Below the pieces are notes generated by a model. The model was not told the origin of the DNA. It saw nothing but the letters and a program-made list of their open reading frames with translations, and searched no databases. A program made the position numbers and the translations under genes. A stretch of DNA of 15,323 nt from a virus (lineage: Duplodnaviria; Heunggongvirae; Uroviricota; Caudoviricetes). Of this stretch, positions 1-15,323 are shown piece after piece. The stretch is from positions 1 to 15,323 of the IMG/VR virus record IMGVR_UViG_2609459790_000002, one strand, 5' to 3'. Each line of letters starts with the position of its first letter. Positions within the stretch are counted from its first letter, which is position 1.

Positions 1-8
1 GGCCCGCG

Positions 9-58
<50 letters not shown>

Positions 59-681
59 ATCCCCGCATAGTCATCATCACAGATTTCAATGACATCACCT
101 GGTACATGGCGAAGCCCTTCGGCACCCACGCTGAAGTCCACGGTCTGCGTTTCCAGCAGTTCCGTTTTAATCAGCCACAGCCCGGCTCGGTGCGCCTGCC
201 CCCGCCTGGTACAGCCAAAGGCATCCATCTTCGTGACGTTACGACCGTAACGGGCAATGGCCTGCGTGTCCTCCACAAGCTCTGTCGCCGTCTCCCAGCC
301 GTTATCCGGGTCAATCCAGTTCACCTCAACGGCATTATGGCGGTCCTTCAGGGCGCTGAAGCTGTAGCGGAACGGCGCGCCATCATCCGGCATCACCACA
401 TTACTGCGGTTATAGGTCCACACCTTATCTGATGGTCGGTCCTGCACGAACGTCAGCGTCTGCCCGTTCCATACCGGCATACAGCGCATCGCCGAGCAGA
501 AATCACTGAGAACATCCCACGCCTTACGCTGTGTGGTCAGCCAGGCATTACAGGTGATGCGCGGCTCCGTGCCGCCAAAACCGTCCGGCACCGACTGGTC
601 GCAACACTGGCCGATGACATACAGCGCCCATTTATCCACATCTGCCGCACCAAGACGTTTACCCATGCCGTAGCGCGGGTG
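59..681 (-). pseudogene. Internal fragment of a lambda J-like tail tip / host-specificity protein (no start, no stop in window)
   Basis: Minus-strand frame whose codons end at plus coordinates divisible by 3 is open from about 681 down to 59. Hand-translated segments: KRLGAADVDKWRLYVIGQCCDQSVPDGFGGTEPRITCNAWLTTQRKAWDVLSDFCSAMRCMPVWNGQTLTFVQDRPSDKVWTYNRSNVVMPDDGAPFRYS (361-660), NVTKMDAFGCTRRGQAHRAG (181-240), EGLRHVPGDVIEICDDDYAGISIG (59-130). I recognise this from memory as the central region of lambda gpJ. Absent from the ORF track because it has no stop codon. Confidence 0.65.
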
Positions 682-916
682 GCTGGAGATCTGTCTCGCT
701 GGCCTGCCGCAGTTCTTCAACTTCCCGGCGCAGCTTTTCGTTCTCAATTTCAGCATCCCTTTCGGCATACCATTTTATGACGGCGGCAGAATCATAAAGC
801 ACCTCATTACCCTTGCCACCGCCTCGCAGAACGGGCATTCCCTGTTCCTGCCAGTTCTGAATGGTACGGATACTCGCACCGAAAATGTCAGCCAGCTGCT
901 TTTTGTTGACTTCCAT
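659..916 (-). pseudogene. nohA: Terminase small subunit Nu1 homologue, truncated after about 79 conserved residues (Qin nohA/nohQ type)
   Basis: Track ORF MEVNKKQLADIFGASIRTIQNWQEQGMPVLRGGGKGNEVLYDSAAVIKWYAERDAEIENEKLRREVEELRQASETDLQP matches the lambda Nu1 N-terminus as I recall it (winged-helix DNA-binding part), then diverges into PALRHG-stop at about nt 680. ATG at 914-916 lies immediately downstream of cosB as in lambda. Confidence 0.8.
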
Positions 917-940
917 TGTTCATTCCACGGACAAAAACAG

Positions 941-1140
941 AGAAAGGAAACGACAAAGGCCAAAAAGCCCGCTTTCAGCACCTGTCGTTTCCTTTCTTTT
1001 CAGGGGGTATTTTAAATAAAAACATTAAGTTACGACGAAGAAGAACGGAAACACCTTAAACCGGAAAATTTTCATAAATAGCGAAAACCCGCGAGGTCGC
1101 CGCCCCGTAACCTGTCGGATCACCGGAAAGGACCCGTAAA
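941..1140 (-). other. Lambda-type cos site: cosB (R1, R2, R3 gpNu1 boxes) and cosN with the 12-nt cohesive-end sequence
   Basis: Minus strand reads GGGCGGCGACCT (plus 1094-1105), the lambda cohesive end. Flanked on one side by the CGTAACCTGTCGGATCACCGGAAAGGACCCGT lambda right-end sequence, on the other by CGCGGGTTTTCGCTATTTATGAAAATTTTCCGG. R3-like box at plus 1042-1054, R2-like 984-997, R1-like 941-954 (CGTTTCC(N)TTCT type). Recognised from memory of the lambda genome ends. Confidence 0.75.
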
Positions 1141-1304
1141 GTGATAATGATTATCATCTACATATCACAACGTGCGTGGAGGCCATCAAACCACGTCAAA
1201 TAATCAATTATGACGCAGGTATCGTATTAATTGATCTGCATCAACTTAACGTAAAAACAACTTCAGACAATACAAATCAGCGACACTGAATACGGGGCAA
1301 CCTC

Positions 1305-1538
1305 ATGTCAACGAAGAACAGAACCCGCAGAACAACAACCCGCAACATCCGCTTTCCTAACCAAATGATTGAACAAATTAACATCGCTCTTGAGCAAAAA
1401 GGGTCCGGGAATTTCTCAGCCTGGGTCATTGAAGCCTGCCGCCGGAGACTGTGCTCAGAAAAAAGAGTTTCTTCTGAAGCAAACAAAGAAAAGAGTGACA
1501 TTACTGAATTGCTCAGAAAACAGGTCAGACCAGATTGA
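1305..1538 (+). CDS. ynfO: Small basic prophage protein (YnfO-like), 77 aa
   Basis: ATG at 1305, first gene after cos; position matches the Qin gene order nohA-ynfO-ydfO. Arg/Thr-rich N-terminus. Symbol assigned by synteny and recollection, not by search. Confidence 0.55.
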   Translation: MSTKNRTRRTTTRNIRFPNQMIEQINIALEQKGSGNFSAWVIEACRRRLCSEKRVSSEANKEKSDITELLRKQVRPD

Positions 1539-1595
1539 AGCAATTTAGATAATCGTGCAGACTACGCCCCCTCATATCACATGGAAGGTTTATCT

Positions 1596-2006
1596 ATGGA
1601 TCAGGTAGTCATTTTTAAACAAATATTTGATAAAGTTCGAAACGATTTAAACTATCAATGGTTTTATTCTGAGCTAAAACGTCACAATGTCTCACATTAC
1701 ATTTACTATTTAGCCACAGAGAATGTTCATATTGTATTAAAAAATGATAATACAGTGTTATTAAAGGGCCTAAAAAACATTGTGTCTGTCAAATTTTCAA
1801 AGGATAGGCATCTTATAGAAACGACCTCTAATAAGCTGAAATCCAGAGAGATCACATTTCAGGAATACAGAAGAAACCTTGCTAAAGCAGGAGTTTTTCG
1901 GTGGGTTACAAATATCCACGAACAAAAAAGATATTACTATACCTTTGATAATTCATTACTATTTACTGAAAGCATCCAGAAAACTACACAGATCTTACCA
2001 CGCTAA
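1596..2006 (+). CDS. ydfO: DUF1398-family prophage protein (YdfO-like), 136 aa
   Basis: Track ORF 1581-2006. The ATG at 1596 has a GGAAGG SD 7 nt upstream (1584-1589) whereas 1581 has none, giving 136 aa. Synteny with Qin ydfO. Confidence 0.6.
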
Positions 2007-2157
2007 ACCATAACGTCCGGCTTCTCTCACTCCTGAGCCGGACTGCATTGGTTTAATAAAAACCATCAACAATTGTGATTTAGATATTCGGAACCATTCA
2101 AATATAACAAAACCCCGTAAAAACGAGGTTTATGGATAAATTTTATTATTGAATACA

Positions 2158-2334
2158 TCAGATTAAATTAATCTTGACATCATAGCTTTCAAGACCCGTC
2201 ATTTTTTCCCGTGCGGTAAACTGAATACTGGTAACTTCTTTCCCGGTCTTTTTCTTAAGTTCAATAATTTTTTTTGTTATATATTCAGAAATATCTGCTT
2301 CTGCTTTTGTTTTTAAGTTTTCAATATTCATCAT
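2158..2334 (-). CDS. gnsB: GnsA/GnsB-family small protein, 58 aa (missed by ORF track, under 60 aa)
   Basis: Hand translation of minus strand: MMNIENLKTKAEADISEYITKKIIELKKKTGKEVTSIQFTAREKMTGLESYDVKINLI, stop TGA at 2158-2160. AAGAGGAA SD 6 nt upstream of tandem ATG ATG (2329-2334). The FTAREKMTGLESYDVK core is the GnsA/GnsB signature as I recall it. Start could be the second ATG (2331). Confidence 0.7.
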   Translation of the reverse strand: MMNIENLKTKAEADISEYITKKIIELKKKTGKEVTSIQFTAREKMTGLESYDVKINLI

Positions 2335-2502
2335 TTCCTCTTTTAGTCTGTTATGACTTTCCAGTTACACAGTAAGTCGATTATATGGTGCAAACGTGTA
2401 AAAGATAAGATGAAACATCGCAATAATCAACATACGATAGTCTAAATTTTACACAAACAGACAAAGAGAATTTTCCTGAATTATCAATGCAATAGCATCA
2501 AA

Positions 2503-2733
2503 TCAACTCAAGAGCCTTATTGCTGCTTCCAGAATTTCTTCTGAAGTAACATGTCGATCCGCGGCTACATAAATGACTTTATGATCTCCGGTCAGAGATG
2601 GAAACCCTGCGGCCATTACAGTAAGGTGTGTTTTTTCGCCATTTGGATATTCACGCATGATGGTGTTAACTCCAGTCATCGCTGGCACTACCACTGCTGG
2701 TTCAGAGTTAAAAAAAACTATGATTTTTTTCAT
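2503..2733 (-). CDS. ynfN: Small hypothetical prophage protein (YnfN-like by position), 76 aa from ATG
   Basis: Track ORF 2503-2775 begins at a TTG; the first ATG is at 2731-2733 (MKKIIVFFNSEPAVVV...). Located between gnsB and cspI as ynfN is in Qin. Start codon is uncertain. Confidence 0.45.
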   Translation of the reverse strand: MKKIIVFFNSEPAVVVPAMTGVNTIMREYPNGEKTHLTVMAAGFPSLTGDHKVIYVAADRHVTSEEILEAAIRLLS

Positions 2734-3004
2734 GATGTTACCGTAGTATGTGAGTATCCATCGAATAGACACCAAGCAAAAAAGCTCCCGAAGGAGCCTT
2801 CATTTTCACTTTTTTAAATCCAACGACAGACGGCTGGCATTTAAGTATTGTGAAATATTATCAAATGTAATCATCATTGATTTACAAAAGATACATTTTG
2901 CCCCGAAAGGATTCATGTCAGAAACATCAAAAGATGATGTTCTATACTGGGAACCATGACAACACGGGCATCTAAAGTGAATATGGTTTGTAATATTGTC
3001 TACC

Positions 3005-3217
3005 TCAAAGCGCCACTACATGAACAGCGGCAGGACCTTTAGGTCCGTTCTCAATACCAAATTCAACTTCCTGATTCTCAGTTAATGTTTTGAAATCGTT
3101 GCTCTGAATTGCTGAGAAATGGACAAACACATCTTTGCTGCCATCTTTCGGCGTGATGAAACCAAAACCTTTTTCAGGGTTAAACCATTTCACTAAACCA
3201 GTCATTTTGTTAGACAT
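3005..3217 (-). CDS. cspI: Cold-shock protein, CspA family, 70 aa
   Basis: [70 protein letters not shown] carries RNP1 (KGFGFI) and RNP2 (VFVHF) motifs. AAGG SD 8 nt upstream of the ATG. Sequence and position match Qin cspI. Confidence 0.9.
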
Positions 3218-3579
3218 AATTATTACCTTTTGAAGAAATTAGCCCTTGGGCAGAATGGTCCGAAAAAAAATATCAGAGAGAAAAACCAACAAGGAAATCT
3301 CAAGAGGTACAAATAATAAAATTATAACAATGACTGCTTCAGATAAATTTGTAACAAACCAGAACACCATTAACGCATGATTAACCACCCATAGCAAGGA
3401 TTACTTTTGTAAAGAAAAACACAGCAATGAAAGAATAGCTTTATTTATTAATAAAACGTGTCATTCTGATTAAGACCTTTTATCTTACCCTTAAGATTTC
3501 AGGAATTTTGGCTCATGGAAGAGTCCTTTTTATTTAAATTTTACATTCCGCGATGTAAATGTTCCGATTTAATATTACC

Positions 3580-4603
<1,024 letters not shown>

Positions 4604-4607
<4 letters not shown>

Positions 4608-4915
4608 AGATATTTATGATGAGGACGCTCGTGCTTATTGGCAGGATTTTCAATCTTAAAGGAGTACTGATGCTGCAGATAAGACTCAACTTTTTCTGAC
4701 AATTTTTCTGCTACTTCCAGGAAGACTTGCCGGACGCTCCTTCTGGCTGCTGCCTCATAAAACTCCAGCGCAGCTCCTTCAACACGGTCCATGGCGACAT
4801 CCAGGTCAAAAATTTCACCGTCAAAGCGTTCTTTGTCCTGTAAGGCTACAGTTACCGTAACTTTATTCTCAAAATTACGGACTCCTTTCACAACCAGTTC
4901 ATAGTCTTGAGTCAT
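4604..4915 (-). CDS. ydfR: Lysis-cassette accessory protein (YdfR / DUF1327-like), 103 aa
   Basis: ATG at 4913-4915 with an AGGAGA SD 8 nt upstream. Sits between holin and endolysin as in Qin. Function unknown. Confidence 0.65.
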
Positions 4916-4919
4916 TGGA

Positions 4920-5135
4920 TTACTCTCCTCTCGCAGCCTTACGCCTGTCTTCTTTAATCTTGAAATAAAGATTTGTCAGATACGTCAGCAGGCCAAAAAC
5001 CAGGCTACCCAGCACACCGATTGCAGCCCACTGTGACGGAGTTACTTTATCGAGTAACTGCAATGCCCAGAAACCAGCATTACCCGCCGATGTGCCATAG
5101 GCAACACCTGTTGTTAACTTATCCATTGATTTCAT
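4920..5135 (-). CDS. essQ: Class II holin (phage 21 S-like) with dual-start motif, 71 aa
   Basis: [71 protein letters not shown] has two TM segments. Met1-Lys-Ser-Met4 is a holin/antiholin dual start. GGTGAGGA SD directly upstream of the ATG at 5133-5135. The track ORF extends to 5210 without SD support. Confidence 0.8.
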
Positions 5136-5354
5136 ATCCTCACCCCGATGTACACGGATGGTGCAATATGTTTGAAAAGATCGGAGTCTACGGGGTAGTT
5201 TTGACAGCACACGTTGTTCTCAACGGCGCTAAAAAAACATACACATTAAAAATGTGGGTAATTATTTTGAAAGAAAGTCATATATAAAATAATAATACGA
5301 GAAATGTTTTCATATTTAGTGTACTGTATACGGCCATTTATACAGGAAAAGCCT

Positions 5355-5525
5355 ATGTCAGAACGTAAAAACTCAAAATCACGCCGTAATTATCTCGTTA
5401 AATGTTCCTGCCCAAACTGCACCCAAGAGTCAGAACACAGTTTTTCAAGAGTACAAAAAGGTGCCCTTTTGATCTGCCCTCATTGCAACAAAGTATTCCA
5501 GACAAATCTTAAAGCTGTAGCCTGA
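5355..5525 (+). CDS. Small zinc-ribbon protein, 56 aa (CxxC...CxxC), possibly the Qin YnfU-type small protein
   Basis: MSERKNSKSRRNYLVKCSCPNCTQESEHSFSRVQKGALLICPHCNKVFQTNLKAVA has two CxxC pairs (CPNC, CPHC). AGGAAAA SD 8 nt upstream of the ATG at 5355. Track ORF 5304-5525 is the longer version. Confidence 0.5.
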   Translation: MSERKNSKSRRNYLVKCSCPNCTQESEHSFSRVQKGALLICPHCNKVFQTNLKAVA

Positions 5526-5577
5526 TTGATTTTATTAGTAACAAGTATTTTTTATATTTTAATAATATATTTAAAGC

Positions 5578-5607
5578 AGATAATAAAAAACCCGCCTGAG
5601 CGGGTTT
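5578..5607 (-). terminator. Rho-independent terminator (minus-strand oriented), between the Zn-ribbon ORF and cspB
   Basis: Stem AAACCCGC (5588-5595) / GCGGGTTT (5600-5607) with a 4-nt loop. On the minus strand it is followed by TTTTTTATTAT; the plus-strand side has a weaker U tract. Confidence 0.55.
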
Positions 5608-5888
5608 GAGATTGTGGTGCTTTTTGTGGGAGTCATCCACTTACGCACTTTGTTTTGCCATGCCAGCAGTTAGCTTCTGCTGTAAAACTATTCATGCAGC
5701 AAACCTGCACTTCACCACAATGGTTAGCATACTTTTCCTGATTAAGATTTTGCCAAATATGCTAGCCATTGTTTCATGTATTGGACCTCCTTACTTTTTA
5801 TTAAAGAGATCCAATATTCACTACTCTGTCCGTATCTCTACTCAGGCATCAGCCTTCTTCGTTATCGTATACAGACGAGCGATGAATT

Positions 5889-6104
5889 TTAATCAGTAAT
5901 GATGACATTTGCTGCTGCAGGACCTTTAGCACCACTCTCTATAGAGAAGGTAACCTTTTGACCTTCAAATAAGGTTCGATAATTATCATTCTGAATCGCA
6001 GAAAAATGCACAAACACATCTTTACTACCATCAACAGGAGAAATAAAGCCGAAACCTTTATCAGCGTTAAACCATTTTACTAAACCAGTCATTTTATTTG
6101 ACAT
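5889..6104 (-). CDS. cspB: Cold-shock protein CspB, 71 aa
   Basis: [71 protein letters not shown] with RNP1/RNP2 motifs. AAGGAA SD 7 nt upstream of the ATG at 6102-6104. Long AT-rich 5' leader region as in csp genes. Confidence 0.9.
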
Positions 6105-6404
6105 TCTACATTCCTTAACTTGAGCCTTTCGGCATAAATGGTTTGCATAACAGAAACGACTTCGTACTTAATTGGAGAGACTCAAAGAAGGAATAAGTGA
6201 ATAACACCTGAAATGAGAACTGCTTTAGTAAACTACTTCGTATATCGTCTGTTCTTCAAACCGACGCAATCATTAACGCATAGTTGAACATATGAAGCAA
6301 TGTTTATTTTAGACATCCAGCCATCTTCAACCCCATCAAAAAACTATAGCTTTCTTCAGGAACGTGTGTATAGTGCGCCAAGTTATCAGTATTAAGGAAT
6401 TTTT

Positions 6405-6617
6405 TTGTCCCGTAAAATGACAGGAATTGTCAAAACCTTTGACGGCAAAAGCGGCAAGGGTCTTATCACCCCATCCGATGGTCGTATCGATGTCCAGCTT
6501 CATGTTTCAGCGCTCAATCTCCGCGATGCAGAAGAAATTACCACCGGATTACGCGTGGAATTTTGCCGGATAAATGGTCTGCGTGGCCCTTCAGCTGCCA
6601 ATGTTTACCTTTCATGA
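6405..6617 (+). CDS. cspF: Cold-shock-protein-family paralogue CspF, 70 aa (TTG start)
   Basis: [70 protein letters not shown]. First codon is TTG at 6405 with an AAGGAA SD 5 nt upstream. Divergent from cspB. RNP motifs are degenerate, as in CspF/CspH. Confidence 0.85.
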
Positions 6618-6671
6618 GCTATATTAAAGCTTTAATTTCAGGCCCCATCGGATCACACATGGAGAGTTTTT

Positions 6672-6761
6672 ATGAATAACCCCGTCTGTCTTGATGACTG
6701 GTTGATTGGCTTTAAAAGCTTATGCTGTACTTTGGCCGTAATAGCTCTGCTAATAATATAA
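6672..6761 (+). CDS. Candidate 29-aa small hydrophobic protein (speculative)
   Basis: ATG at 6672 preceded by GGAGAG (6661-6666) with a 5-nt spacer. [29 protein letters not shown] ends in a hydrophobic stretch. Lies between cspF and the downstream terminator. No homology could be checked. Confidence 0.25.
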
Positions 6762-6907
6762 TAAGCAGACTCATTGTGTTTAGGGACATTGTACTGGAAG
6801 AAAACATTTTAAACATCAGGCAAATAACCAAGTCACCAGCTAAATAATAAGTTAACAGACATGAGTCCCGGGATGAGATTCAACATTACCATTGCCCCAT
6901 TTAAAGC

Positions 6908-6946
6908 ACAAAACCCGCTCATCAGCGGGTTTTCTACTTTTTCTTA
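6908..6946. terminator. Bidirectional rho-independent terminator (cspF terminator on plus strand; tR'-like on minus strand)
   Basis: Stem AAACCCGC (6911-6918) / GCGGGTTT (6925-6932) with a 6-nt loop. Plus strand continues TTTTCTACTTTTTCTT; minus strand continues TTTTGTGCTTT. Lies about 40-60 nt downstream of the predicted late promoter. Confidence 0.6.
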
Positions 6947-6978
6947 ACGTCGGGTATACAAAGCCCATCGTTGAAAAA

Positions 6979-7007
6979 ATTTTATCCATATTTTTTGAAA
7001 AATGCAA
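6979..7007 (-). promoter_or_regulatory. PR'-like sigma70 late promoter immediately downstream of Q (TTGCAT-N17-TAAAAT)
   Basis: On the minus strand: -35 TTGCAT (plus 7002-7007), 17-nt spacer, -10 TAAAAT (plus 6979-6984). Located 30-60 nt after the quuQ stop, the canonical place for the Q-modified late promoter in lambdoid phages. Confidence 0.5.
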
Positions 7008-7038
7008 ACATCATGTCGCCATCTTCAGCAAAAATCAT

Positions 7039-7791
7039 TTATCTCGTCACCTTCCTCAATTGCGCTTCCGCGTATGCTTCTTCCTGCCAGCACTTTGTTA
7101 CCAGTTTACCAATGACGTCCGCATACCCCTTATACCACTGATAATCGGTCAGGTCTGGTACCAGCTTCTGGACATGACGTCGTGCCAGCGTGGTCGGTAA
7201 ACGACTAAACCGGTTTCCATTACAACGCCCACAAATCTTATATACCGGTACGCCATGAAACCGGGTTCTTTTTTCATCCAGAACAATCCCTTTACCCTTA
7301 CACCCTCTGCACGCTGTGCTGGCTTCGCCCTTACCATGGCAATGCTGACATAGTTCCTTCACCCATTCTTCCTTGATTACAGATTCCCCGCGTCTGTAGT
7401 GTTTCACCACTTCGCGCAATACATTATAAAATCCCGTACCTGAACAATGCTCACAGCGAGCCTTACTTGCCGCAGACCTGGAGTAATCAGCAAAGGCAAA
7501 ACTCACGAGGTAAGGAATAATCTGTAACCGGATTTCTTCACTCAATTTGTTCAATGTCGGGTTATCCAGTGCCATCGCGTAATTTAGCAGGCCTTCAATC
7601 GCAAACTGAGGGTCCTGAACACCAACTTTTGCCAGAAATAAGGCCAACCCAAGTGGTGCTTTCGACTGCACCATCCCCTGCGCTGCCATTACATCCGTAA
7701 TTGTTAAACAACCGGTGCCTGTCGCTGGAGCGTCATCGCTCAATTTTGGAGATTTTGGGGAGTAATATTTTGGTAAGGCTTCAAGGTTCAT
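7039..7791 (-). CDS. quuQ: Late-gene antiterminator Q (phage 82/21-type) with four CxxCxGxG zinc-finger repeats, 250 aa
   Basis: ATG at 7789-7791 (MNLEALPKYY...) with a GGAG SD about 7 nt upstream. Track ORF extends to 7821 but would overlap the upstream gene by 17 nt. Contains CEHCSGTG, CQHCHGKG, CRGCKGKG, CGRCNGNR. Position between ydfU and the late promoter matches Q. Confidence 0.8.
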   Translation of the reverse strand: MNLEALPKYYSPKSPKLSDDAPATGTGCLTITDVMAAQGMVQSKAPLGLALFLAKVGVQDPQFAIEGLLNYAMALDNPTLNKLSEEIRLQIIPYLVSFAFADYSRSAASKARCEHCSGTGFYNVLREVVKHYRRGESVIKEEWVKELCQHCHGKGEASTACRGCKGKGIVLDEKRTRFHGVPVYKICGRCNGNRFSRLPTTLARRHVQKLVPDLTDYQWYKGYADVIGKLVTKCWQEEAYAEAQLRKVTR

Positions 7792-7804
7792 GCTCGTTCT
7801 CCAC

Positions 7805-8854
7805 TTACGCCAGTACGCCAATTGCCAGCGCGCGATCGATAAAACGAAATATCAGCTCCAGTTGGGAGCCATACTTATCTTCAAATGCCACTGTATCCGT
7901 ATGCAGCTCGTTGTGATGCTTTCTGCACAAAGGCAACACAAAGAGATCATGTGCTTTTGTTCCCATTCCGCCCTGCCCGTGACCAATCAGATGATGCGGA
8001 TCGTCGGCTGGCATACCGCAGCAAGCACACGGCTGTGTCTTAACCCAACGTGTGTATTTCTCCTTAACCCAGCGGCGACGTTTAGGCAGCTTCATGAAAG
8101 ATTCCGGAGACTCTGGATCAACGGTGATGCTTACCACCGTCTTTTCCTGTGGTGATTTTTGTTGCTGGTGGGCGTAAGGCAACGGTGCAAGATTTTTTGT
8201 GCGTTGTTTCAATATGCTGGTGGCGGTCTGCTCTCCCGGTACGATGTCGCTTTCGCGGTACACCGAGCAGATTTTTTCCGCTGGTAATCCCAGCGAACGA
8301 CGCGATACAGCCTCAGGTAGTGCATCCACCACCTGATTGCAGACCGCCCACCAGGATAATTCAGCCAAAGATAATTCCCGCTCCTGCGTACCGCTTATTG
8401 CGTGACGGATGACGTCAATCACCCATGCTGTCAGATTTTGTTGAGCAAGCAGCTCCAGTGATTCCGATGTCTGGTCACGCAGTTGGTTGTCGCAGTGCCA
8501 GCACAACACCATTGCGCCGGTACCATAACGGTGAATGACTGTTTCAGTGTGATGGTAATCGCCATTAGGCCACTGGCAGGATGTAACATGACGTAATAGC
8601 CAGTCGGACAATGCGCCAACGCCGCCAGCAGCACGAATCACCCGTTCGTTACTAAAAAACGGCAGCAATGTTTTGTCTTCCGCCAGCGGCTGGCGAACGG
8701 CAGGAACGACTCCGGATGGCAGATTACGCATGCTTTTTGGTTCCGGTTCCACCAGCACTCGAGGATTATGAAATATCTGTATGGATTCACGGCCCGGCTT
8801 AAGGACCACCAGCCCAAGCTCAGGCACCAGAACAGGTCTAAGTAATACCCGCAC
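7805..8854 (-). CDS. ydfU: DUF968-family prophage protein YdfU-like with C-terminal HNH-like Cys/His motif, 349 aa
   Basis: Chosen start is GTG at 8852-8854 with GGAGG 4 nt upstream, one nt after the TAA of the upstream ORF. Track ORF extends to 8893 (GTG, no SD); first ATG at 8731 has no SD. C-terminus has CACCGMPADDPHHLIGHGQGG...LCRKHHNELH. Confidence 0.65.
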   Translation of the reverse strand: MRVLLRPVLVPELGLVVLKPGRESIQIFHNPRVLVEPEPKSMRNLPSGVVPAVRQPLAEDKTLLPFFSNERVIRAAGGVGALSDWLLRHVTSCQWPNGDYHHTETVIHRYGTGAMVLCWHCDNQLRDQTSESLELLAQQNLTAWVIDVIRHAISGTQERELSLAELSWWAVCNQVVDALPEAVSRRSLGLPAEKICSVYRESDIVPGEQTATSILKQRTKNLAPLPYAHQQQKSPQEKTVVSITVDPESPESFMKLPKRRRWVKEKYTRWVKTQPCACCGMPADDPHHLIGHGQGGMGTKAHDLFVLPLCRKHHNELHTDTVAFEDKYGSQLELIFRFIDRALAIGVLA

Positions 8855-8855
8855 G

Positions 8856-9134
8856 TTACCTCCAGATCCGTTGCTGGAAAGTGCGGGACGCACGTGGTGG
8901 GCGTTCGGAATAAGGCAGCCTGACAGAGATTATCCAGTGCCGATAGTCGAGACTGAGAGCTTTCTTAACCTCGAACCCGCGCCTGCGGTAAGAATGAATC
9001 AGCCATTCGGCCTGTTCTGCAGTGCATGGAGGGTGCTGGAACCATTCAGACTTGAATGCGTGAGAATACCGCCCGTGCGTGCAGGCAAGAACGGGCGAAT
9101 TATCAGAATTGTAATATTTTGCGTTGCGTGCCAT
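8856..9134 (-). CDS. Hypothetical 92-aa prophage protein, translationally coupled to ydfU
   Basis: ATG at 9132-9134 with a GGAGAA SD 5 nt upstream. Its stop TAA (8856-8858) abuts the ydfU GTG. Protein MARNAKYYNSDNSPVLACTHGRYSHAFKSEWFQHPPC... is not recognised. Confidence 0.5.
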   Translation of the reverse strand: MARNAKYYNSDNSPVLACTHGRYSHAFKSEWFQHPPCTAEQAEWLIHSYRRRGFEVKKALSLDYRHWIISVRLPYSERPPRASRTFQQRIWR

Positions 9135-9200
9135 CGGTTTTCTCCGGTGGCACGGTGTTACTCAGCGGGAGTTCAGCCCCGCGCAAGATTGTAGATGAGT

Positions 9201-9452
9201 TTATTCTCCTGAAAAAGCAGAAAAGCCAGCTTTTATTCCGATCTCTTTCAATGCCTGTAATGAAGTGACAAACTCACCTTCGCGCAAGATAAATCCGTCC
9301 GTGACCCGAGCATCCACAAAATTAATTAACGCAGCCCCATTCTTTCGCAAACACATAATGCGGTAATGACTAACAAGATTTCCATTTTCAACGCACACAG
9401 CATAGAGGCCATCTTCACAAAAAATTTTACGCAGTTCTTCGATGTTCATCAT
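9201..9452 (-). CDS. rem: Small prophage protein Rem-like, 83 aa
   Basis: Tandem ATG ATG at 9447-9452 with a GGAAGGA SD 5 nt upstream. Its position immediately downstream of the relBE-hokD terminator matches rem in Qin. Identity by synteny and length only. Confidence 0.55.
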   Translation of the reverse strand: MMNIEELRKIFCEDGLYAVCVENGNLVSHYRIMCLRKNGAALINFVDARVTDGFILREGEFVTSLQALKEIGIKAGFSAFSGE

Positions 9453-9565
9453 CAGAATCCTTCCGGATAATTAGCTCTCCCCTTTAAGGGACCATCCCTC
9501 TTATCCCTGCGCGCTACTTAAGTATTTTTGATTCTATTCCGGCACCGTCCAGAACTTCAAACGCG

Positions 9566-9600
9566 TTGAAAATAAAAACAAAAACCCGCCGAAGCGGGTT
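9566..9600 (-). terminator. Rho-independent terminator of the relB-relE-hokD operon
   Basis: Stem AACCCGC (9583-9589) / GCGGGTT (9594-9600) with a CGAA loop. On the minus strand it is followed by TTTTTGTTTTTATTTT. About 68 nt downstream of the hokD stop. Confidence 0.65.
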
Positions 9601-9668
9601 AAGTGCGGGTGCGTTGAGGATGCCTGCCACATCAGAGGTGGCGAGGGATTTCTCCCCCGCCGGGTCTC

Positions 9669-9824
9669 TTACTCCTCAGGTTCGTAAGCTGTGAAGACAG
9701 CGACCTCCGTCTGGCCGGTTCGGATTCGTACCTCGCAGAGGTCTTTCCTCGTTACCAGTGCCGTCACTATGACGGTTAAACAGATGACGATCAGGGCGAT
9801 TAACATCGCCTTTTGCTGCTTCAT
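9669..9824 (-). CDS. hokD: Hok-family type I toxin HokD (RelF), 51 aa (missed by ORF track, under 60 aa)
   Basis: Hand translation: MKQQKAMLIALIVICLTVIVTALVTRKDLCEVRIRTGQTEVAVFTAYEPEE. ATG at 9822-9824 with an AGGAGA SD 8 nt upstream; TAA stop at 9669-9671. Hok signature TM helix and LCE motif; third gene of the relBE operon. Confidence 0.85.
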   Translation of the reverse strand: MKQQKAMLIALIVICLTVIVTALVTRKDLCEVRIRTGQTEVAVFTAYEPEE

Positions 9825-9895
9825 AGCCTGCTTCTCCTGTCAACGCAAAGCAGAAGTGTCACCTTCGGTGCGAAACAGAGATGTCATGCTTTGGT

Positions 9896-10183
9896 TCAGA
9901 GAATGCGTTTGACCGCCTCGCTATATACTTCCGAGCGTTCTCTTTTCCCAACAGAAATCACGAAAACGACAACTTTCTCGTCTATAACCTGGTATACAAG
10001 GCGATAGCCTGAAGACCGGAGCTTAATCTTGTAACAATCAGGCATACCACGGAGCTTGTTTGCTTCAATCCGGGGTGACTCAAGTACTTCAACCAGCTTC
10101 TTTTTCAACTGTTCACGTACCGTCGAGCCCAGCTTTCGCCATTCCTTTAGTGCCCGCTCGTCAAAATCCAGAAAATACGCCAT
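9896..10183 (-). CDS. relE: Type II toxin RelE (ribosome-dependent mRNA interferase), 95 aa
   Basis: MAYFLDFDERALKEWRKLGSTVREQLKKKLVEVLESPRIEANKLRGMPDCYKIKLRSSGYRLVYQVIDEKVVVFVISVGKRERSEVYSEAVKRIL is recognised as E. coli RelE. Its ATG overlaps the relB TGA (TGATG). Confidence 0.92.
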   Translation of the reverse strand: MAYFLDFDERALKEWRKLGSTVREQLKKKLVEVLESPRIEANKLRGMPDCYKIKLRSSGYRLVYQVIDEKVVVFVISVGKRERSEVYSEAVKRIL

Positions 10184-10422
10184 CAGAGTTCATCCAGCGT
10201 CACACGTACTGGCTTAGGATTACGAAGCCGTTCTTTCACTATCTCCACAAGTTCAGCATCTTCATCACTCAGGAGTGTCTGTTTGAACGGCAAGCGTTCA
10301 TTGTCAGCGATATACTCGAGCATGAGACGAAGCGCTTCAGAAGGAGTTACACCCATTTTTTCAAGCGCGGCGTAAGAACGCGCTTTAAGTTCATCGTCAA
10401 TACGCAGGTTAATGCTACCCAT
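10183..10422 (-). CDS. relB: Type II antitoxin RelB (RHH DNA-binding), 79 aa
   Basis: MGSINLRIDDELKARSYAALEKMGVTPSEALRLMLEYIADNERLPFKQTLLSDEDAELVEIVKERLRNPKPVRVTLDEL is recognised as E. coli RelB. AGAGGTG SD upstream of the ATG at 10420-10422. Confidence 0.92.
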   Translation of the reverse strand: MGSINLRIDDELKARSYAALEKMGVTPSEALRLMLEYIADNERLPFKQTLLSDEDAELVEIVKERLRNPKPVRVTLDEL

Positions 10423-10475
10423 GTCTTACACCTCTTGTAATTACAAATGTCATTACAAGTATCGCACTACAACAT
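10423..10475 (-). promoter_or_regulatory. relBE promoter/operator region (relO) with TTGTAAT-type repeats
   Basis: Directly upstream of relB: CTTGTAATTACAAATGTCATTACAAG contains inverted and direct TTGTAAT / ATTACAA repeats, consistent with the RelB-RelE-bound operator. Confidence 0.55.
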
Positions 10476-10571
10476 GCTTAGGGCAAGTCACGAAGGAAGT
10501 CAGAAAGTAGTCGTAAGAACGGTGATCACTGTCCGCTTTGTGCCAGAAGCGGATGTTACTTCTTGCATATT

Positions 10572-11483
10572 TCAATTTTCTTCTCCCCACAGCGGTGTAT
10601 CTCCTAACGCTTTAGCAATAAAATCAACAAAGCTGCGAACCTTGAAAGGAATACGGATCGCGCTGGGATAAACAGCCTGAATAGTAAGTTCAGTCGTCCG
10701 GTATGCTGGCAGCAGCTTTATCAGCTTGCCCTGCTTAATATGCTCGCCAAAAACAAAGTTGGGCCCGTAAGCAATGCCTGTTCCGGCCAGTACGGATTCA
10801 AGAAGCAACTGAATGTTATTGGCAGTCATACGGCATGGGCCTTCAATACTGTGCGGCCTGCCTTGTGCATCATAAATCGTCCAGTCTCCCGCTGAAACCG
10901 CCTGGCTGAACGCCAGTCGAGGCGCACGGGAAAGATCATCCGGCGTCTCTGGTGTGCCATGTTTTTTCAAATACTCCGGTGAAGCGCACAAAACCATCCT
11001 GCAAGGTGCCAGCCGCCGCGTAACCAGTGTCGGATCCTCAAAACGCCCAACTCGGATGGCAACATCGATTCGATTTTCGAGCAGATCGGCGTATTTATCC
11101 TCCAGTACAACGTCCAGACTGACCTCCGGAAATTGCTCCAGGTAGCGTGATACGATCCTACCAAGATGCATTGCACCGAAGGCGACCGGTGCTGCAACGC
11201 GAAGCAACCCCTTCGGTGTTTTCTGAACATCACTGGCTTCCCGGTTCGCATCCTCAAGAACCTCAAGAATAACTTTGCAACGTTCATAATACCGCTCACC
11301 GGCATCCGTCAGGCTAAGACGGCGTGTTGAACGCTGAAGAAGTCGTACATTTAGATCAGATTCTATAGCGCTGACATGCTTTCCTGCCATTGCAGCCGAA
11401 AGCTTAAAACGTCTCGCGGCGGCGGCGAAACTGCCTTCATCCACTGCCGCGATAAAAATCTGCATGCTGGTGAACCTGTCCAT
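10572..11483 (-). CDS. LysR-family transcriptional regulator (LTTR), 303 aa
   Basis: N-terminal wHTH signature MDRFTSMQIFIAAVDEGSFAAAARRFKLSAAMAGKHVSAIESDLNVRLLQRSTRRLSLTDAGERYY followed by a substrate-binding domain. Divergent from the adjacent hydrolase gene. Confidence 0.85.
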   Translation of the reverse strand: MDRFTSMQIFIAAVDEGSFAAAARRFKLSAAMAGKHVSAIESDLNVRLLQRSTRRLSLTDAGERYYERCKVILEVLEDANREASDVQKTPKGLLRVAAPVAFGAMHLGRIVSRYLEQFPEVSLDVVLEDKYADLLENRIDVAIRVGRFEDPTLVTRRLAPCRMVLCASPEYLKKHGTPETPDDLSRAPRLAFSQAVSAGDWTIYDAQGRPHSIEGPCRMTANNIQLLLESVLAGTGIAYGPNFVFGEHIKQGKLIKLLPAYRTTELTIQAVYPSAIRIPFKVRSFVDFIAKALGDTPLWGEEN

Positions 11484-11595
11484 AACTTACCACCATTCGA
11501 TAATCAGAGTATCGGCTGTCGACACAATTACGCTGATTATCATCACTCATGACAGCAATTACCATTACCTTAATGACATGAAGAGGCATGAGACG

Positions 11596-12756
11596 ATGAA
11601 AATTAAGGTGAATGGAACGGGTATCCACATTGAGCAACAGGGCAGCGGTGAAATTGCACTGGTATTTTTGCATTATTATGGCGGTTCATCCCGTACATGG
11701 GAGAGCGTGATAAGTCAGTTACCTGACCACTACCGCACAGTTGCAATCGACCACCGGGGCTGGGGGGGCTCAGACGCACCTAAATCAGGATACCGAATTG
11801 GTGACCTTGCTCGGGATGCCGAAGGGGTTATTTCAGCGCTTGAGCTTAAACGCTACATTCTTATTGGCCATTCGATGGGGGGAAAAGTTGCCCAACTGAT
11901 GGCGTCGCGTCGGCCTGCAGGTCTTGAAGGCCTGATGCTTATCGCTCCCTCTCCACCTTCACCTATGCGTCTCACGCCTGAGCAGCGCGATACGTTATCC
12001 AGCGCATATAACAGCCGCGAATCTGTCGGCTTTGTGATTGATAATGTCCTGACAGCGGGGGCACTAAGTTCTGCTCTGCGTGAACAGGTAATCGAGGACA
12101 GTTTGAGGGCCTCATCCGAGGCCAAAGAAGGCTGGCCTAATACGGCTATCGGCGAAGACATTACCCAGGAAGTGGCCTCAATTAATGTCCCTGTGACGGT
12201 CATTTCAGGGGAGTTGGATCGTGTAGACCTTCCGGCTACTCTGCAAAGAGAATTGCTGCCCCTTATTTCACATGCATCAATGTATATTATTCCAGACGTC
12301 GGACATCTCTTGCCTCTGGAGGCCCCTACAGAGGTCGCCAGCCACCTGTTAAAATTTACAGCCGCCATTGAAGGGGGGACAGCAGTCTACCATTCGCCTG
12401 TCGAAACGATAGCCGCGTTTGATGATGCTTTCAATGCAGGCAGGGTTGATGACCTGCTGGCTCTGTTCAGTAACCGTGCCACTATGAAAATGACTGATGG
12501 TGTGGTCATCGAAAGCGATCCTGAAAAGCTTCGGGACACTTTTTTGTCACTGACATCATCCCAGCCAGTTATCAGAAACCATATCCGCTCGATCCTCTCC
12601 GCCGGTGAAATTGCTCTGCTTATTATTGACTGGACTTTGACCATAACCACCAAGGATAGAACACTGCACGAAGAGTCCGGTACAGCAACGCAGGTGTTGT
12701 TGCGAAGCGTTGACGGAGGTTGGCGGCTGCTGATTTCAAATCCATCAGGAACGTAG
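11596..12756 (+). CDS. Alpha/beta-hydrolase fused to a C-terminal NTF2-like / SnoaL-like domain, 386 aa
   Basis: ATG at 11596 with an AAGAGG SD 9 nt upstream; earlier in-frame ATGs at 11464 and 11578 lack an SD and would overlap the LysR start. Nucleophile elbow GHSMGG, HRGWGGSD motif, His in PDVGHLLPLE. The C-terminal 115 aa (AAFDDAFNAGRVDDLLALFS...WRLLISNP) is NTF2/SnoaL-like. Confidence 0.8.
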   Translation: MKIKVNGTGIHIEQQGSGEIALVFLHYYGGSSRTWESVISQLPDHYRTVAIDHRGWGGSDAPKSGYRIGDLARDAEGVISALELKRYILIGHSMGGKVAQLMASRRPAGLEGLMLIAPSPPSPMRLTPEQRDTLSSAYNSRESVGFVIDNVLTAGALSSALREQVIEDSLRASSEAKEGWPNTAIGEDITQEVASINVPVTVISGELDRVDLPATLQRELLPLISHASMYIIPDVGHLLPLEAPTEVASHLLKFTAAIEGGTAVYHSPVETIAAFDDAFNAGRVDDLLALFSNRATMKMTDGVVIESDPEKLRDTFLSLTSSQPVIRNHIRSILSAGEIALLIIDWTLTITTKDRTLHEESGTATQVLLRSVDGGWRLLISNPSGT

Positions 12757-12936
12757 TGAGTTCAGTAAGAATAGCTTGCGCTAGCAATATCGCGTGGCTG
12801 CAGAGAGGTAAGTGACATCCGCCACCACCCGCATGCCGTTTTAAGGCATGCGGTAATAACGATGAGCGCAAGATTGCTGTTATGTCTTGCTGCTTTCGGA
12901 GCGCCTGCTTTTCGCTCTTAGCGGACATTAGCATAG

Positions 12937-14499
12937 GCTATTTACCATAACGCCTCATTACGCGCACCGCCCAGACTGACTCAGCGCGTTTCTGGCATAT
13001 CCCCGGTAAAACAAGTAACAAACCACCCGAAAATGAACACCAGAAACGCGACTTAAGAATCTACCCTATGAATGGATATGCACTCAACCGAATCGATCTT
13101 GGTTTCAATCTTTTTTATCGGGATCAGGCTTCTTTTTAGGTAACTTCGGGGGCTTAACTTGCTGATGACTTTGCGTTCGGCGCGTAAGCCAGGGATGGTC
13201 AGCTTTAGGTTTAACATAGTATTTTGAGCGTAAATCAATACGGGCATTATCCACTCGTTCATGGACACTCTTTTCATCATCCAGTGGTATAGGCTCCGGG
13301 CCATCAACATACTTTTCCCAGCCCAGCGCTTTCCCGTCATACAGAACGTTAATTTCACCGTCAAAGTTCTCGCATACAGTAACAACCGAATGCCTAAGTC
13401 GATATCCCCGGCCCTCACTGCGTACCTGAAACGCACTGCTTTTGTACTGGAAAGTGAGATTTTTAGACAGAACGCGCTTCGCCTGTAGGCTGAAGATATA
13501 ACCCAGTTCCTCTTCAGAATGGTGCACATCAAGATGAGCATTATCAGTAGTACGAGGCGACGTAGCGAACCGGTTGTTATAGGCTTCAATAAAGGTCGGC
13601 AACCATGCATTTGCTGTTTCAATATCACTGATATTCTGAAGCCGCATTTCTTTGACCAGCCTGTCCTGTAGTGTCTGATTGGCGCGCTCTACCCGCCCTT
13701 TTGCCTGCGGGCTGTTGGCATGGATTGGCTCGATGCCCAGTGTCTTTATCGCACGAGTGAACTGGGTCAGCTCACCTTCCCGCTCTGGGTTATTTACCCT
13801 GAATATACTGTGTCTATCAGAGTAGAGAGCGAGCGGTACGCCATGATCATTAAGGTAACCCCGGAGGGTTTCCATGTAAGCCCGGGTTGTTTCAGCAGGC
13901 ACAAAACGCAACGCCATCAACGCACTGGTGGCATCATCAATGAAAACGATCAGTGTACATCTGGGGCCTCGATTTTCAAACCAGTCATGAGGTGAGCCAT
14001 CAATCTGGATCAGTTCACCGTAAGATGGTCGTCGCATGCGGCGTTGATATATACGGGCAATTTTACGACGGCGTTCACGCCATAACCCCTCTTCTATCAT
14101 CCACTTTCTGAGAGTTTCAACGGATAAAGATAAACCGTGTATCTCGCGCAATTTTTCGCACGCAAACGTAGGTCCAAAATCAGCGTAACGGCCTTTGAGG
14201 AGTGAAATTACTGTTGCTCTGAATTCAGTAGAAAAGGAATTATTAGGACGCTTTCCACGTCGGTGGGAAACCAGACCAGAAGGCCCTTCATTTCTATACC
14301 GTTGCACCAGACGTTTAACCTGCCGAATAGAAATGCCAATGCGTGCCGCAGCTTGTTCCTGAATAATCTGAAGTCGGTGGAGTTCCTTATGACTCATCGT
14401 AACAGTCTCTTTGATCATGAAAAATCCCCCAGAGAATTGTCTGGGGACATTTTAGAATGGTTCAAAGGGGACATTACAGCTTGGTGTTAACAATAGCCT
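12937..14499 (-). mobile_element. Insertion sequence carrying the 437-aa DDE transposase; terminal inverted repeats not resolved (ends approximate)
   Basis: Single transposase gene with about 80-170 nt flanks. The only candidate terminal match found by eye is AGGCTATT (12937-12944) against AATAGCCT (14492-14499), which is at chance level. Boundaries are therefore provisional. Confidence 0.35.
13105..14418 (-). CDS. DDE transposase with rve integrase-core domain (IS481/ISNCY-like), 437 aa
   Basis: N-terminal HTH (GISIRQVKRLVQRYRNEGPSGLVSHRRGKRP), DDE-type core (LIQIDGSPHDW..., LALYSDRHSIF, ...RVERANQTLQ) and a Lys/Pro-rich basic tail. ATG at 14416-14418 with a GGGGGA SD. Family assignment is from motif recollection only. 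Confidence 0.8.
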   Translation of the reverse strand: MIKETVTMSHKELHRLQIIQEQAAARIGISIRQVKRLVQRYRNEGPSGLVSHRRGKRPNNSFSTEFRATVISLLKGRYADFGPTFACEKLREIHGLSLSVETLRKWMIEEGLWRERRRKIARIYQRRMRRPSYGELIQIDGSPHDWFENRGPRCTLIVFIDDATSALMALRFVPAETTRAYMETLRGYLNDHGVPLALYSDRHSIFRVNNPEREGELTQFTRAIKTLGIEPIHANSPQAKGRVERANQTLQDRLVKEMRLQNISDIETANAWLPTFIEAYNNRFATSPRTTDNAHLDVHHSEEELGYIFSLQAKRVLSKNLTFQYKSSAFQVRSEGRGYRLRHSVVTVCENFDGEINVLYDGKALGWEKYVDGPEPIPLDDEKSVHERVDNARIDLRSKYYVKPKADHPWLTRRTQSHQQVKPPKLPKKKPDPDKKD

Positions 14500-14797
14500 G
14501 CTTCTCCGTGCCTTTCGGCACGTAAGAGGCTAACCTACATGTGTCTAGCATGAAATTGGCCTCAGATTAATGTTAAGCGTCTTGCAGGACGCGTAATGTT
14601 AACTGGGGCTTTTCTCTATCTGCCGTTGGTGTCCATGCCCGAGGCAGATAGCCTCAAGCACCCGCAGTCATTCTACTTAACTAAGATTTCCCCGCAAACC
14701 GTTTTTGTCCAGCACAGTAAATATCCAACTAAACCAATGGAGTTCGCTGTATTTACCGCCAGTATTCAATGCACATGACCGCCATGAACACCCCTAA

Positions 14798-15323
<526 letters not shown>

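Follow-up and report, generated by a model that had tools for sequence, protein, structure and literature searches.

A probable lambda-type late regulatory cassette followed by a cargo slot with cold-shock genes in a Qin-type prophage of Escherichia coli

In phage lambda, the gene of the antiterminator Q is followed directly by the promoter pR' and, after a leader of about 0.6 kb that contains one small open reading frame (ORF), by the holin gene; without Q, transcription from pR' stops at the terminator tR', and the product is a short RNA of about 194 nt, known as 6S RNA. Here we describe a comparable locus in a window of 15,323 nucleotides, corresponding to positions 1 to 15,323 of the IMG/VR virus record IMGVR_UViG_2609459790_000002 (Caudoviricetes), and in particular its stretch 5136-7038, which is exactly the spacer from the Q gene (ydfT/quuQ) to the holin gene (essQ). 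Between 4900 and 7900 the window matches the Qin cryptic prophage of Escherichia coli K-12 MG1655, and likewise many other strains, with 100% identity, and window 680-10550 shows 99.86% identity to K-12. We consider it highly probable that the locus combines the late regulatory cassette of a Qin-type lambdoid prophage with a standard cargo slot placed after it.

The definition of the Q cassette, and the observation that Q-loaded complexes pass over sites of pausing and termination for thousands of base pairs, have been documented previously (PMC9388147). Passages of the Stx phage literature describe stx as co-transcribed with the late genes under pR'. The phage Stx2c_PV98-693 is close to the locus studied here: its Q/PR'/tR' module is 89-90% identical, and its cargo begins directly after the T-run of tR' and ends before the holin gene. 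By contrast, that cargo consists of a methylase, tRNAs and the toxin genes, and the Stx2c ORFs examined (141 aa, 75 aa, methylase, stxA and stxB), as well as both tRNAs, all point in the late direction, whereas three of the four Qin cargo genes are antisense to it and the Qin cargo has no known virulence role. The morons of lambdoid phages (Hendrix/Juhala) are present or absent at one junction, deviate in GC content, carry their own signals and are expressed from silent prophages. The first two features apply to Qin as well, and the last two at least to cspB and in part to ynfU; unlike these morons, the Qin block is composite, with four genes in two divergent/convergent pairs instead of one promoter-gene-terminator unit, which is no difference in kind.

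All coordinates given below are those of the window and equal NC_000913.3 minus 1635450. Positions published for NC_000913.2 were converted with an offset, in this region, of +1976 to NC_000913.3, where cspB lies at 1641339; the same offset is consistent with the version-2 coordinates reported by genomic SELEX for the cspB-cspF spacer. The elements on which the assignment depends are the following:

7039-7791, minus strand: ydfT/quuQ, the Q antiterminator gene (K-12 annotation; PF03589).
7007-7002 and 6984-6979, minus strand: PR', with TTGCAT, N17 and TAAAAT (sequence; layout of lambda pR').
6933-6910, minus strand: hairpin of tR', with the RNA 3' end at 6906 (Term-seq; fold; module homology up to 6910).
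5148-6905, no strand: variable cargo slot, from tR' to the holin ribosome-binding site (breakpoints; GC content).
4920-5135, minus strand: essQ, a P21-type holin gene (K-12 annotation).

A preliminary description, made from the sequence alone, had placed a good sigma70 promoter, TTGCAT-N17-TAAAAT, just past the Q gene. The promoter is present on the minus strand, with its hexamers 32-61 nt past the Q stop codon. Its quality as a consensus match, instead, is mediocre: a promoter scanner reads it as TTTGCA-18-TAAAAT with a score of 9/12, and promoter-like sites in the region occur at chance level (12 found vs 12.4 expected from shuffled sequence), so that PR' was rejected as notable by consensus statistics. 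The consensus is only average; what speaks for the promoter is its homology to lambda pR', with the same layout, and the published mapping of a start.

On the minus strand the order is TTGCAT, 17 nt, TAAAAT, TTTTTC, AACGAT (6972-6967) and GGG, and in lambda pR' it is TTGACT, 17 nt, TAAATT, TGACTC, AACGAT and GGG; the spacing is the same throughout, including the 6 nt between the -10 hexamer and AACGAT, and this pause element, at +1 to +6, is identical in the two. The sequence AACGATGGG is also the same in lambda and is invariant in the alignment of relatives. Moreover, PR' is near-invariant in six phages/prophages, AACGAT is invariant in six relatives, and the -35/-10 spacer, in which a putative Q-binding element would lie judging from the sequence, is almost unchanged among the phages with this Q gene.

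Published maps of K-12 transcripts fall on the same positions. A transcription start detected by dRNA-seq at 1640446(-) of NC_000913.2 (Thomason et al. 2015, as quoted in PMC7876045) corresponds to window 6972, which is the first A of AACGAT, the same as in lambda, and the minus-strand start that had been predicted near 6970 is thus mapped. In the sigma70-affinity RNET-seq data from delta-greAB cells (Sun et al. 2021; PMC7876045, Supplementary Data 1), pauses are found at 1640429 and 1640430 (-) of NC_000913.2, with scores of 6881 and 5783; in the window these are 6955 and 6956, 17 and 16 nt downstream of the start site, and in lambda the sigma70 pause is likewise 16-17 nt from the start. In the sigma70/delta-greAB sheet, apparently sorted by score, the two pauses stand in rows 12 and 24, and 12,211 pauses were reported for this sample (PMC7876045); they are among the strongest sigma70-dependent pauses in the E. 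coli K-12 genome. The SMRT-Cappable-seq tables contain no entry for the genes of this region. An ORF of 51 aa at 6852-7007, annotated as hypothetical in phage PhiR42_1, was rejected as a gene, as it merely overlies PR', the pause element and tR'.

The hairpin terminator noticed just downstream of Q was confirmed at 6933-6910. The hairpin is followed by UUUUGUGCUUU, and the 73-nt RNA folds at -30.4 kcal/mol with z = -6.1. A curated Term-seq 3' end at 1642356(-) of NC_000913.3, present in all three growth conditions and labelled 'orphan' (Adams et al. 2021; PMC7815308, Supplementary file 1), corresponds to window 6906. From the PR' start to this end a short RNA of about 67 nt is obtained; a short terminated RNA without Q is a feature shared with lambda, although its length is different. 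The start at 6972, the pauses at 6956/6955 and the 3' end at 6906 bear out the identity of the two elements as PR' and tR', which had been proposed from their position, and the assignment is supported by the homology to lambda pR', the lambda-family Q, the conservation across phages and the published K-12 maps. In this way, the 'orphan' transcript end and the very strong sigma70 pause are now assigned to the Qin late promoter. A further minus-strand Term-seq 3' end, seen in stationary phase only, lies at 6738, 168 nt past tR' and antisense to ynfS, where the sequence folds no better than shuffled sequence; this end implies that tR' is partly read through or that transcription also starts somewhere from 6906 to 6738.

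As in lambda, the promoter lies directly past a Q gene of the same Pfam family and the holin gene is found downstream. QuuQ matches the lambda-Q family PF03589 with E = 3.6e-54 and 181 bits, vs a cut-off of 26.7, and is 33% identical to lambda Q (BLASTP, E = 2e-40). Unlike lambda Q, it has an insertion of 48 aa in the zinc-ribbon arm, which in lambda Q makes contact to DNA and sigma region 4; the insertion, common to the whole Q group of SfV, mEp460 and Stx2c, brings two extra CXXCXGXG motifs and gives a Pfam match to DnaJ_CXXCXGXG (DnaJ central domain). A literature search on the function of quuQ/ydfT found no paper.

The boundaries of the cargo are exact. The Q module runs from 8122 to 6910 and takes in the 3' part of ydfU along with Q, PR', the pause element and tR'; pairwise BLAST gives it 89-90% identity to the five phages SfV, Ayreon, mEp460, PhiR47_1 and Stx2c_PV98-693, and this homology stops at 6910, the last base of the terminator. 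On the other side, in phages with the same holin, homology restarts at 5147 or 5161, 12-26 nt before the essQ ATG. The holin ATG (5135) is 1837 nt from the PR' start site, in agreement with the distance of about 1.8 kb given in the preliminary description. The GC content of the cargo is 38.0%, vs 47.0% in the lysis genes and 50.5% in Q and ydfU. The slot is filled as follows:

SfV: a small ORF without known function and orf48.
Ayreon and mEp460: small ORFs and a DNA methylase.
PhiR47_1: a 141-aa ORF and four tRNAs.
Stx2c phage: methylase, tRNA-Met, tRNA-Arg, StxA and StxB.
Qin: cspF-ynfS, cspB and ynfU (1.76 kb).

The reading of the insert as morons between the late promoter and the lysis cassette was therefore upheld: it is supported by the exact breakpoints, the differing cargo in relatives and the low GC content, and the csp block shows textbook moron behaviour at the classical Q-to-S slot. 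The genes, the location and the moron concept are all already known, and the arrangement is real but ordinary.

Among 5426 complete E. coli genomes, the Q module was found in 2415 and the csp block in 1619, and in 1608 the two are contiguous; hence, about 30% of E. coli genomes have cold-shock genes in the slot that carries Shiga toxin genes in pathogenic phages. The same cargo is found in deposited phages, with 99.95-100% identity in PhiR42_1, whose genome is 48.7 kb, and 94-99% in 2H10, Tritos and HannyBb; all four have complete lysis genes and also packaging genes. Tritos lacks 6608-6865, which includes ynfS and the last cspF codons, so that ynfS and the end of cspF are dispensable in the Tritos genome. 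In phage HannyBb (locus 2394-3997), the 3' end of Q and PR' (window 7096-6956) are present in duplicate, with about 1.55 kb between the two copies and, in this stretch, a minus-strand ORF of 94 aa with a hydrophobic C-terminus; this looks like a further cargo insertion via recombination at PR'.

The cargo, its signals and the genes around it are listed here:

2978-3363, minus strand: cspI with its cold-shock leader, in a second cargo slot past the lysis genes, late direction (Rfam, Pfam).
3005-3217, minus strand: cspI (K-12 annotation).
3580-5135, minus strand: lysis cassette essQ, ydfR, rrrQ, rzpQ and rzoQ (annotation; Pfam Phage_holin_2_1, DUF1327, Phage_lysozyme).
3580-4077 and 3630-3884, minus strand: rzpQ and rzoQ, respectively (K-12 annotation).
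4074-4607, minus strand: rrrQ (K-12 annotation).
4604-4915, minus strand: ydfR (K-12 annotation).
5355-5525, plus strand: ynfU, Zn-ribbon protein of 56 aa (K-12 annotation; Pfam YnfU).
5588-5607, no strand: hairpin between the convergent cspB and ynfU (scanner; T-run on the minus strand).
5815-5780, minus strand: 14-bp hairpin, with the dominant cspB 3' ends at 5776/5774 (Term-seq; fold of 5760-5890).
5889-6104, minus strand: cspB (K-12 annotation; Pfam CSD).
5873-6265, minus strand: cspB mRNA, with a 161-nt leader (6265-6105) and the coding sequence (6104-5889), late direction (Rfam, Pfam).
6405-6617, plus strand: cspF, a divergent CspA paralogue (K-12 annotation; Pfam CSD).
6672-6761, plus strand: ynfS, 29 codons (K-12 annotation; Pfam YnfS).
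7805-8854, minus strand: ydfU (K-12 annotation).

Three CspA paralogues had been recognized in under 4 kb, and cspI, cspB and cspF do lie within 3.6 kb. Their products, of about 70 aa, match the cold-shock domain CSD of Pfam (PF00313) over its full length (E-values of 9.8e-32 for CspB, 1.6e-31 for CspI and 5.6e-22 for CspF), and the pairwise identities among CspB, CspI and CspF are 69%, 42% and 46%, that between CspF and CspB being 42%. The Rfam cspA thermoregulator RF01766, with a gathering score of 78, was found in the leaders of cspB (158.8 bits, E = 4e-42) and cspI (112.8 bits), and the search with RF01766 gave no match for cspF. The divergent cspF-cspB unit (5990-6613), control region included, aligns over about 0.6 kb and with about 77% identity to the cspH-cspG pair, which belongs to the core genome and is present in nearly all E. 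coli; the two represent one module duplicated between chromosome and prophage, although in the matches seen cspH-cspG does not adjoin a Q gene or a lysis cassette.

The gene list of the preliminary description (cspF, cspB and a Zn-ribbon ORF) was incomplete, as the 29-codon ynfS on the plus strand had been missed, and of the strands it had correctly given that of cspF as opposite to the late direction, overlooking that the Zn-ribbon gene, ynfU, is opposite too. YnfU (Pfam YnfU, E = 3.5e-31), encoded antisense to the late direction, is a verified small protein, which reaches the highest level of all those discovered with it, and YnfS protein has been detected; cspF and ynfS are antisense to the late direction. 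That these genes have their own terminators proved only partly right. At the hairpin 5588-5607, which folds with z = -4.1 and -4.6, the sole Term-seq 3' end is that of the plus strand, the ynfU strand, at 1641060(+) = window 5610 (PMC7815308). By contrast, cspB ends mainly at a hairpin without a U-tract, and for cspF-ynfS there is no plus-strand 3' end in the Term-seq map; for cspF, neither promoter nor 3' end is mapped in the published data examined.

The main cspB 3' end lies 113 nt beyond the stop codon, at the foot of the 14-bp hairpin 5815-5780, which has no U-tract, and the Term-seq scores at 5776/5774 are 0.6-2.5 million (PMC7815308); this end at 5774-5776 is probably a site of processing or an exonuclease stop, and not a terminator or a gene. 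In fact, an 11-codon ORF at about 5776 with a perfect Shine-Dalgarno sequence (TAAGGAGGT-N7-ATG) was considered and rejected, its sequence being the 3' arm of the same hairpin. The cspB leader has a Rho-dependent 3' end (6184), and termination by Rho has also been mapped to a region at 6087 (PMC7815308). The own signals thus comprise, for cspB, the leader and its 3' ends; for ynfU, the protein, the 3' end at 5610 and a promoter that is predicted only; for ynfS, the protein. In the silent prophage, the four cargo genes would be expressed independently, and cspB is under cold-shock control.

The following course of late transcription is proposed. RNA polymerase with sigma70 starts at PR' (6972, minus strand), as the published K-12 maps show, and pauses 16-17 nt downstream as sigma70 re-binds the -10-like AACGAT; without Q it stops at tR', giving the RNA of about 67 nt as a counterpart of the lambda 6S RNA. 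Q, once made, should load on the paused complex and render it termination-resistant, judging from its family membership. The Q-modified polymerase would cross tR', the antisense ynfS and cspF, the Rho-sensitive cspB leader and cspB itself, would next cross the cspB 3' hairpin, the terminator at 5607-5588 and the antisense ynfU, and would then reach essQ, ydfR, rrrQ, rzpQ and cspI. The slot that separates tR' from the holin ribosome-binding site is exchangeable, and filled here by four accessory genes. We infer the Q-dependent read-through to essQ from the family membership of Q and from phage genomes of the same layout; by analogy with the stx genes, cspB and cspI, which have the late direction, would, on induction, additionally be transcribed together with the late operon.

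Several points weigh against this proposal. The RNA ending at 6906 could partly derive from ydfU-ydfT transcripts, as Term-seq does not link ends; Qin is cryptic in K-12 and its Q may not be expressed; and we found no experiment showing that Qin Q binds PR' or causes read-through. A sigma70 site found by SELEX in the essQ-cspB spacer could act as a local promoter and aid the lysis genes, and the head-on cspF, ynfS and ynfU could lower read-through. Finally, PhiR42_1 itself probably forms plaques, judging from its record and from the PhiR panel, which is described as consisting of plaque-forming temperate relatives of lambda.

The alternative that survives best is that an essQ-proximal promoter drives the lysis genes, and that PR' makes only a short terminated RNA, irrelevant to lysis. 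Two overlapping sites are in question:

5288-5261, minus strand: TTTATA-16-AATAAT, candidate essQ promoter (scanner 9/12; genomic SELEX).
Within 5261-5296, plus strand: TTGAAA-18-AATAAT, candidate ynfU promoter (scanner 10/12).

The minus-strand site was found by the scanner, and exactly its hexamers were described by Shimada et al. 2014, with a note of H-NS, as those of a constitutive essQ promoter that depends on RpoD; the essQ-cspB spacer also has SELEX peaks of other sigma factors. However, SELEX gives neither strand nor start site, the region is AT-rich with promoter-like sites at chance level, and the overlapping plus-strand site is the better one and fits ynfU, which was unannotated in 2014 and yet has a well expressed protein. 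Moreover, the site lies inside the exchangeable cargo, and phages with the same holin share just 12-28 nt before the ATG. Because the holin module has no conserved promoter of its own, phages with the csp cargo must express their lysis genes through it. We therefore regard this alternative as unlikely: the site may contribute, but it is unlikely to be the sole driver. As the DNA of the essQ-cspB and cspB-cspF spacers is AT-rich and bound by H-NS, the SELEX peaks that minor sigma factors have there were not taken as evidence for particular promoters.

The preliminary description had left it open whether late transcription reads through the insert or is blocked by it, and a block by terminators, the Rho site and convergent promoters could be one cause of Qin crypticity. 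On the minus strand, polymerase meets tR', the 3' end at 6738, the Rho sites at 6184/6087, the hairpin 5815-5780 and the terminator 5607-5588, and the cspF-ynfS and ynfU units are transcribed head-on against it; between PR' and essQ, therefore, there are two canonical intrinsic terminators, a Rho-dependent region, the 14-bp hairpin and two head-on units. On the other hand, stems other than the 14-bp hairpin, which lacks a U-tract, are just 6-10 bp, and a Q-loaded polymerase ignores terminators over kilobases (PMC9388147). Stx phages with a 90% identical Q module carry several kb of cargo at the same place; the identical region is found in phage PhiR42_1 (100%), and close copies in 2H10, HannyBb and Tritos, with lysis and packaging genes. 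With the same cargo in deposited phage genomes and lysis expression through it, a block is very unlikely, which answers the earlier question indirectly. Hardly more credible is that the 6910-6933 hairpin is not tR' but the terminator of cspF-ynfS, brought in with the cargo: the scanner calls it terminator-like on the plus strand too (tail CTACTTTTTC), where it folds well (z = -5.8) and towards which cspF-ynfS is directed, but it is part of the Q module in SfV, Ayreon and the Stx2c phage, all without cspF, relatives change its loop and keep its stem, homology stops just past it, and Term-seq lists a 3' end on the minus strand (6906) and none on the plus strand; probably, it acts in both directions.

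Read-through from PR' being preferred, the cargo could still be more than passive, an idea that we hold to be unlikely. The cargo might form a brake that tunes Q-dependent transcription, and with it the timing of holin and lysis, to temperature or growth state, or CspB and CspI might feed back on antitermination or on late-mRNA structure. The idea of a conditional brake comes from the head-on promoters, the Rho-sensitive cold-shock leader and the long hairpin, all in a leader of 1.8 kb. An active cargo would be consistent with the fact that three of the four genes lie antisense, and that the whole block is conserved in a third of E. coli genomes. CspA-family proteins act as transcription antiterminators, and CspE reportedly interferes with Q-mediated antitermination in vitro; a literature search on CspE and Q-mediated antitermination found nothing usable.

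A further comparison is offered by DLP12 (quuD, nmpC, essD), which is also a cryptic lambdoid prophage of K-12, with nmpC as cargo and a P21-type holin, and in which a very strong sigma70 pause promoter is again followed by a hairpin terminator; its pauses occupy rows 2 and 4 in the sigma70 list already cited, with the start at 576452 (+) of NC_000913.2. Unlike in Qin, the paused promoter comes after nmpC, about 170 nt upstream of essD (DLP12 locus 880-1000), so that the cargo is upstream of the paused promoter, whereas in Qin it is downstream of the terminator. Also in respect to lambda, the Qin leader to the holin gene is different, being 1.84 kb long and containing four genes with apparently independent expression. 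The locus offers a harmless K-12 model for Q-modified polymerase crossing cargo that is transcribed head-on, and no current view is changed by the finding.

The essQ-cspB spacer (5148-5620) serves as a chromosomal landing pad for MG1655 reporter libraries. This spacer holds the expressed ynfU and would be crossed by the predicted late transcript, and reporter assays at the landing pad could be affected if Q became active.

The window diverges from K-12 to the right of relB (10551-15323) and also in 1-679, and none of the complete E. coli genomes covers at least 80% of this part. It contains a gene for a LysR-type regulator at 10572-11483 (minus strand) and an ORF of 430 aa at 11464-12756 (plus strand), a candidate hydrolase-like fusion. 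A 437-aa transposase is encoded at 13105-14418 (minus strand), annotated as ISNCY family in matching genomes, and a sok RNA was found at 14492-14663 (minus strand; Rfam, 104 bits), together with an IS5-like fragment.

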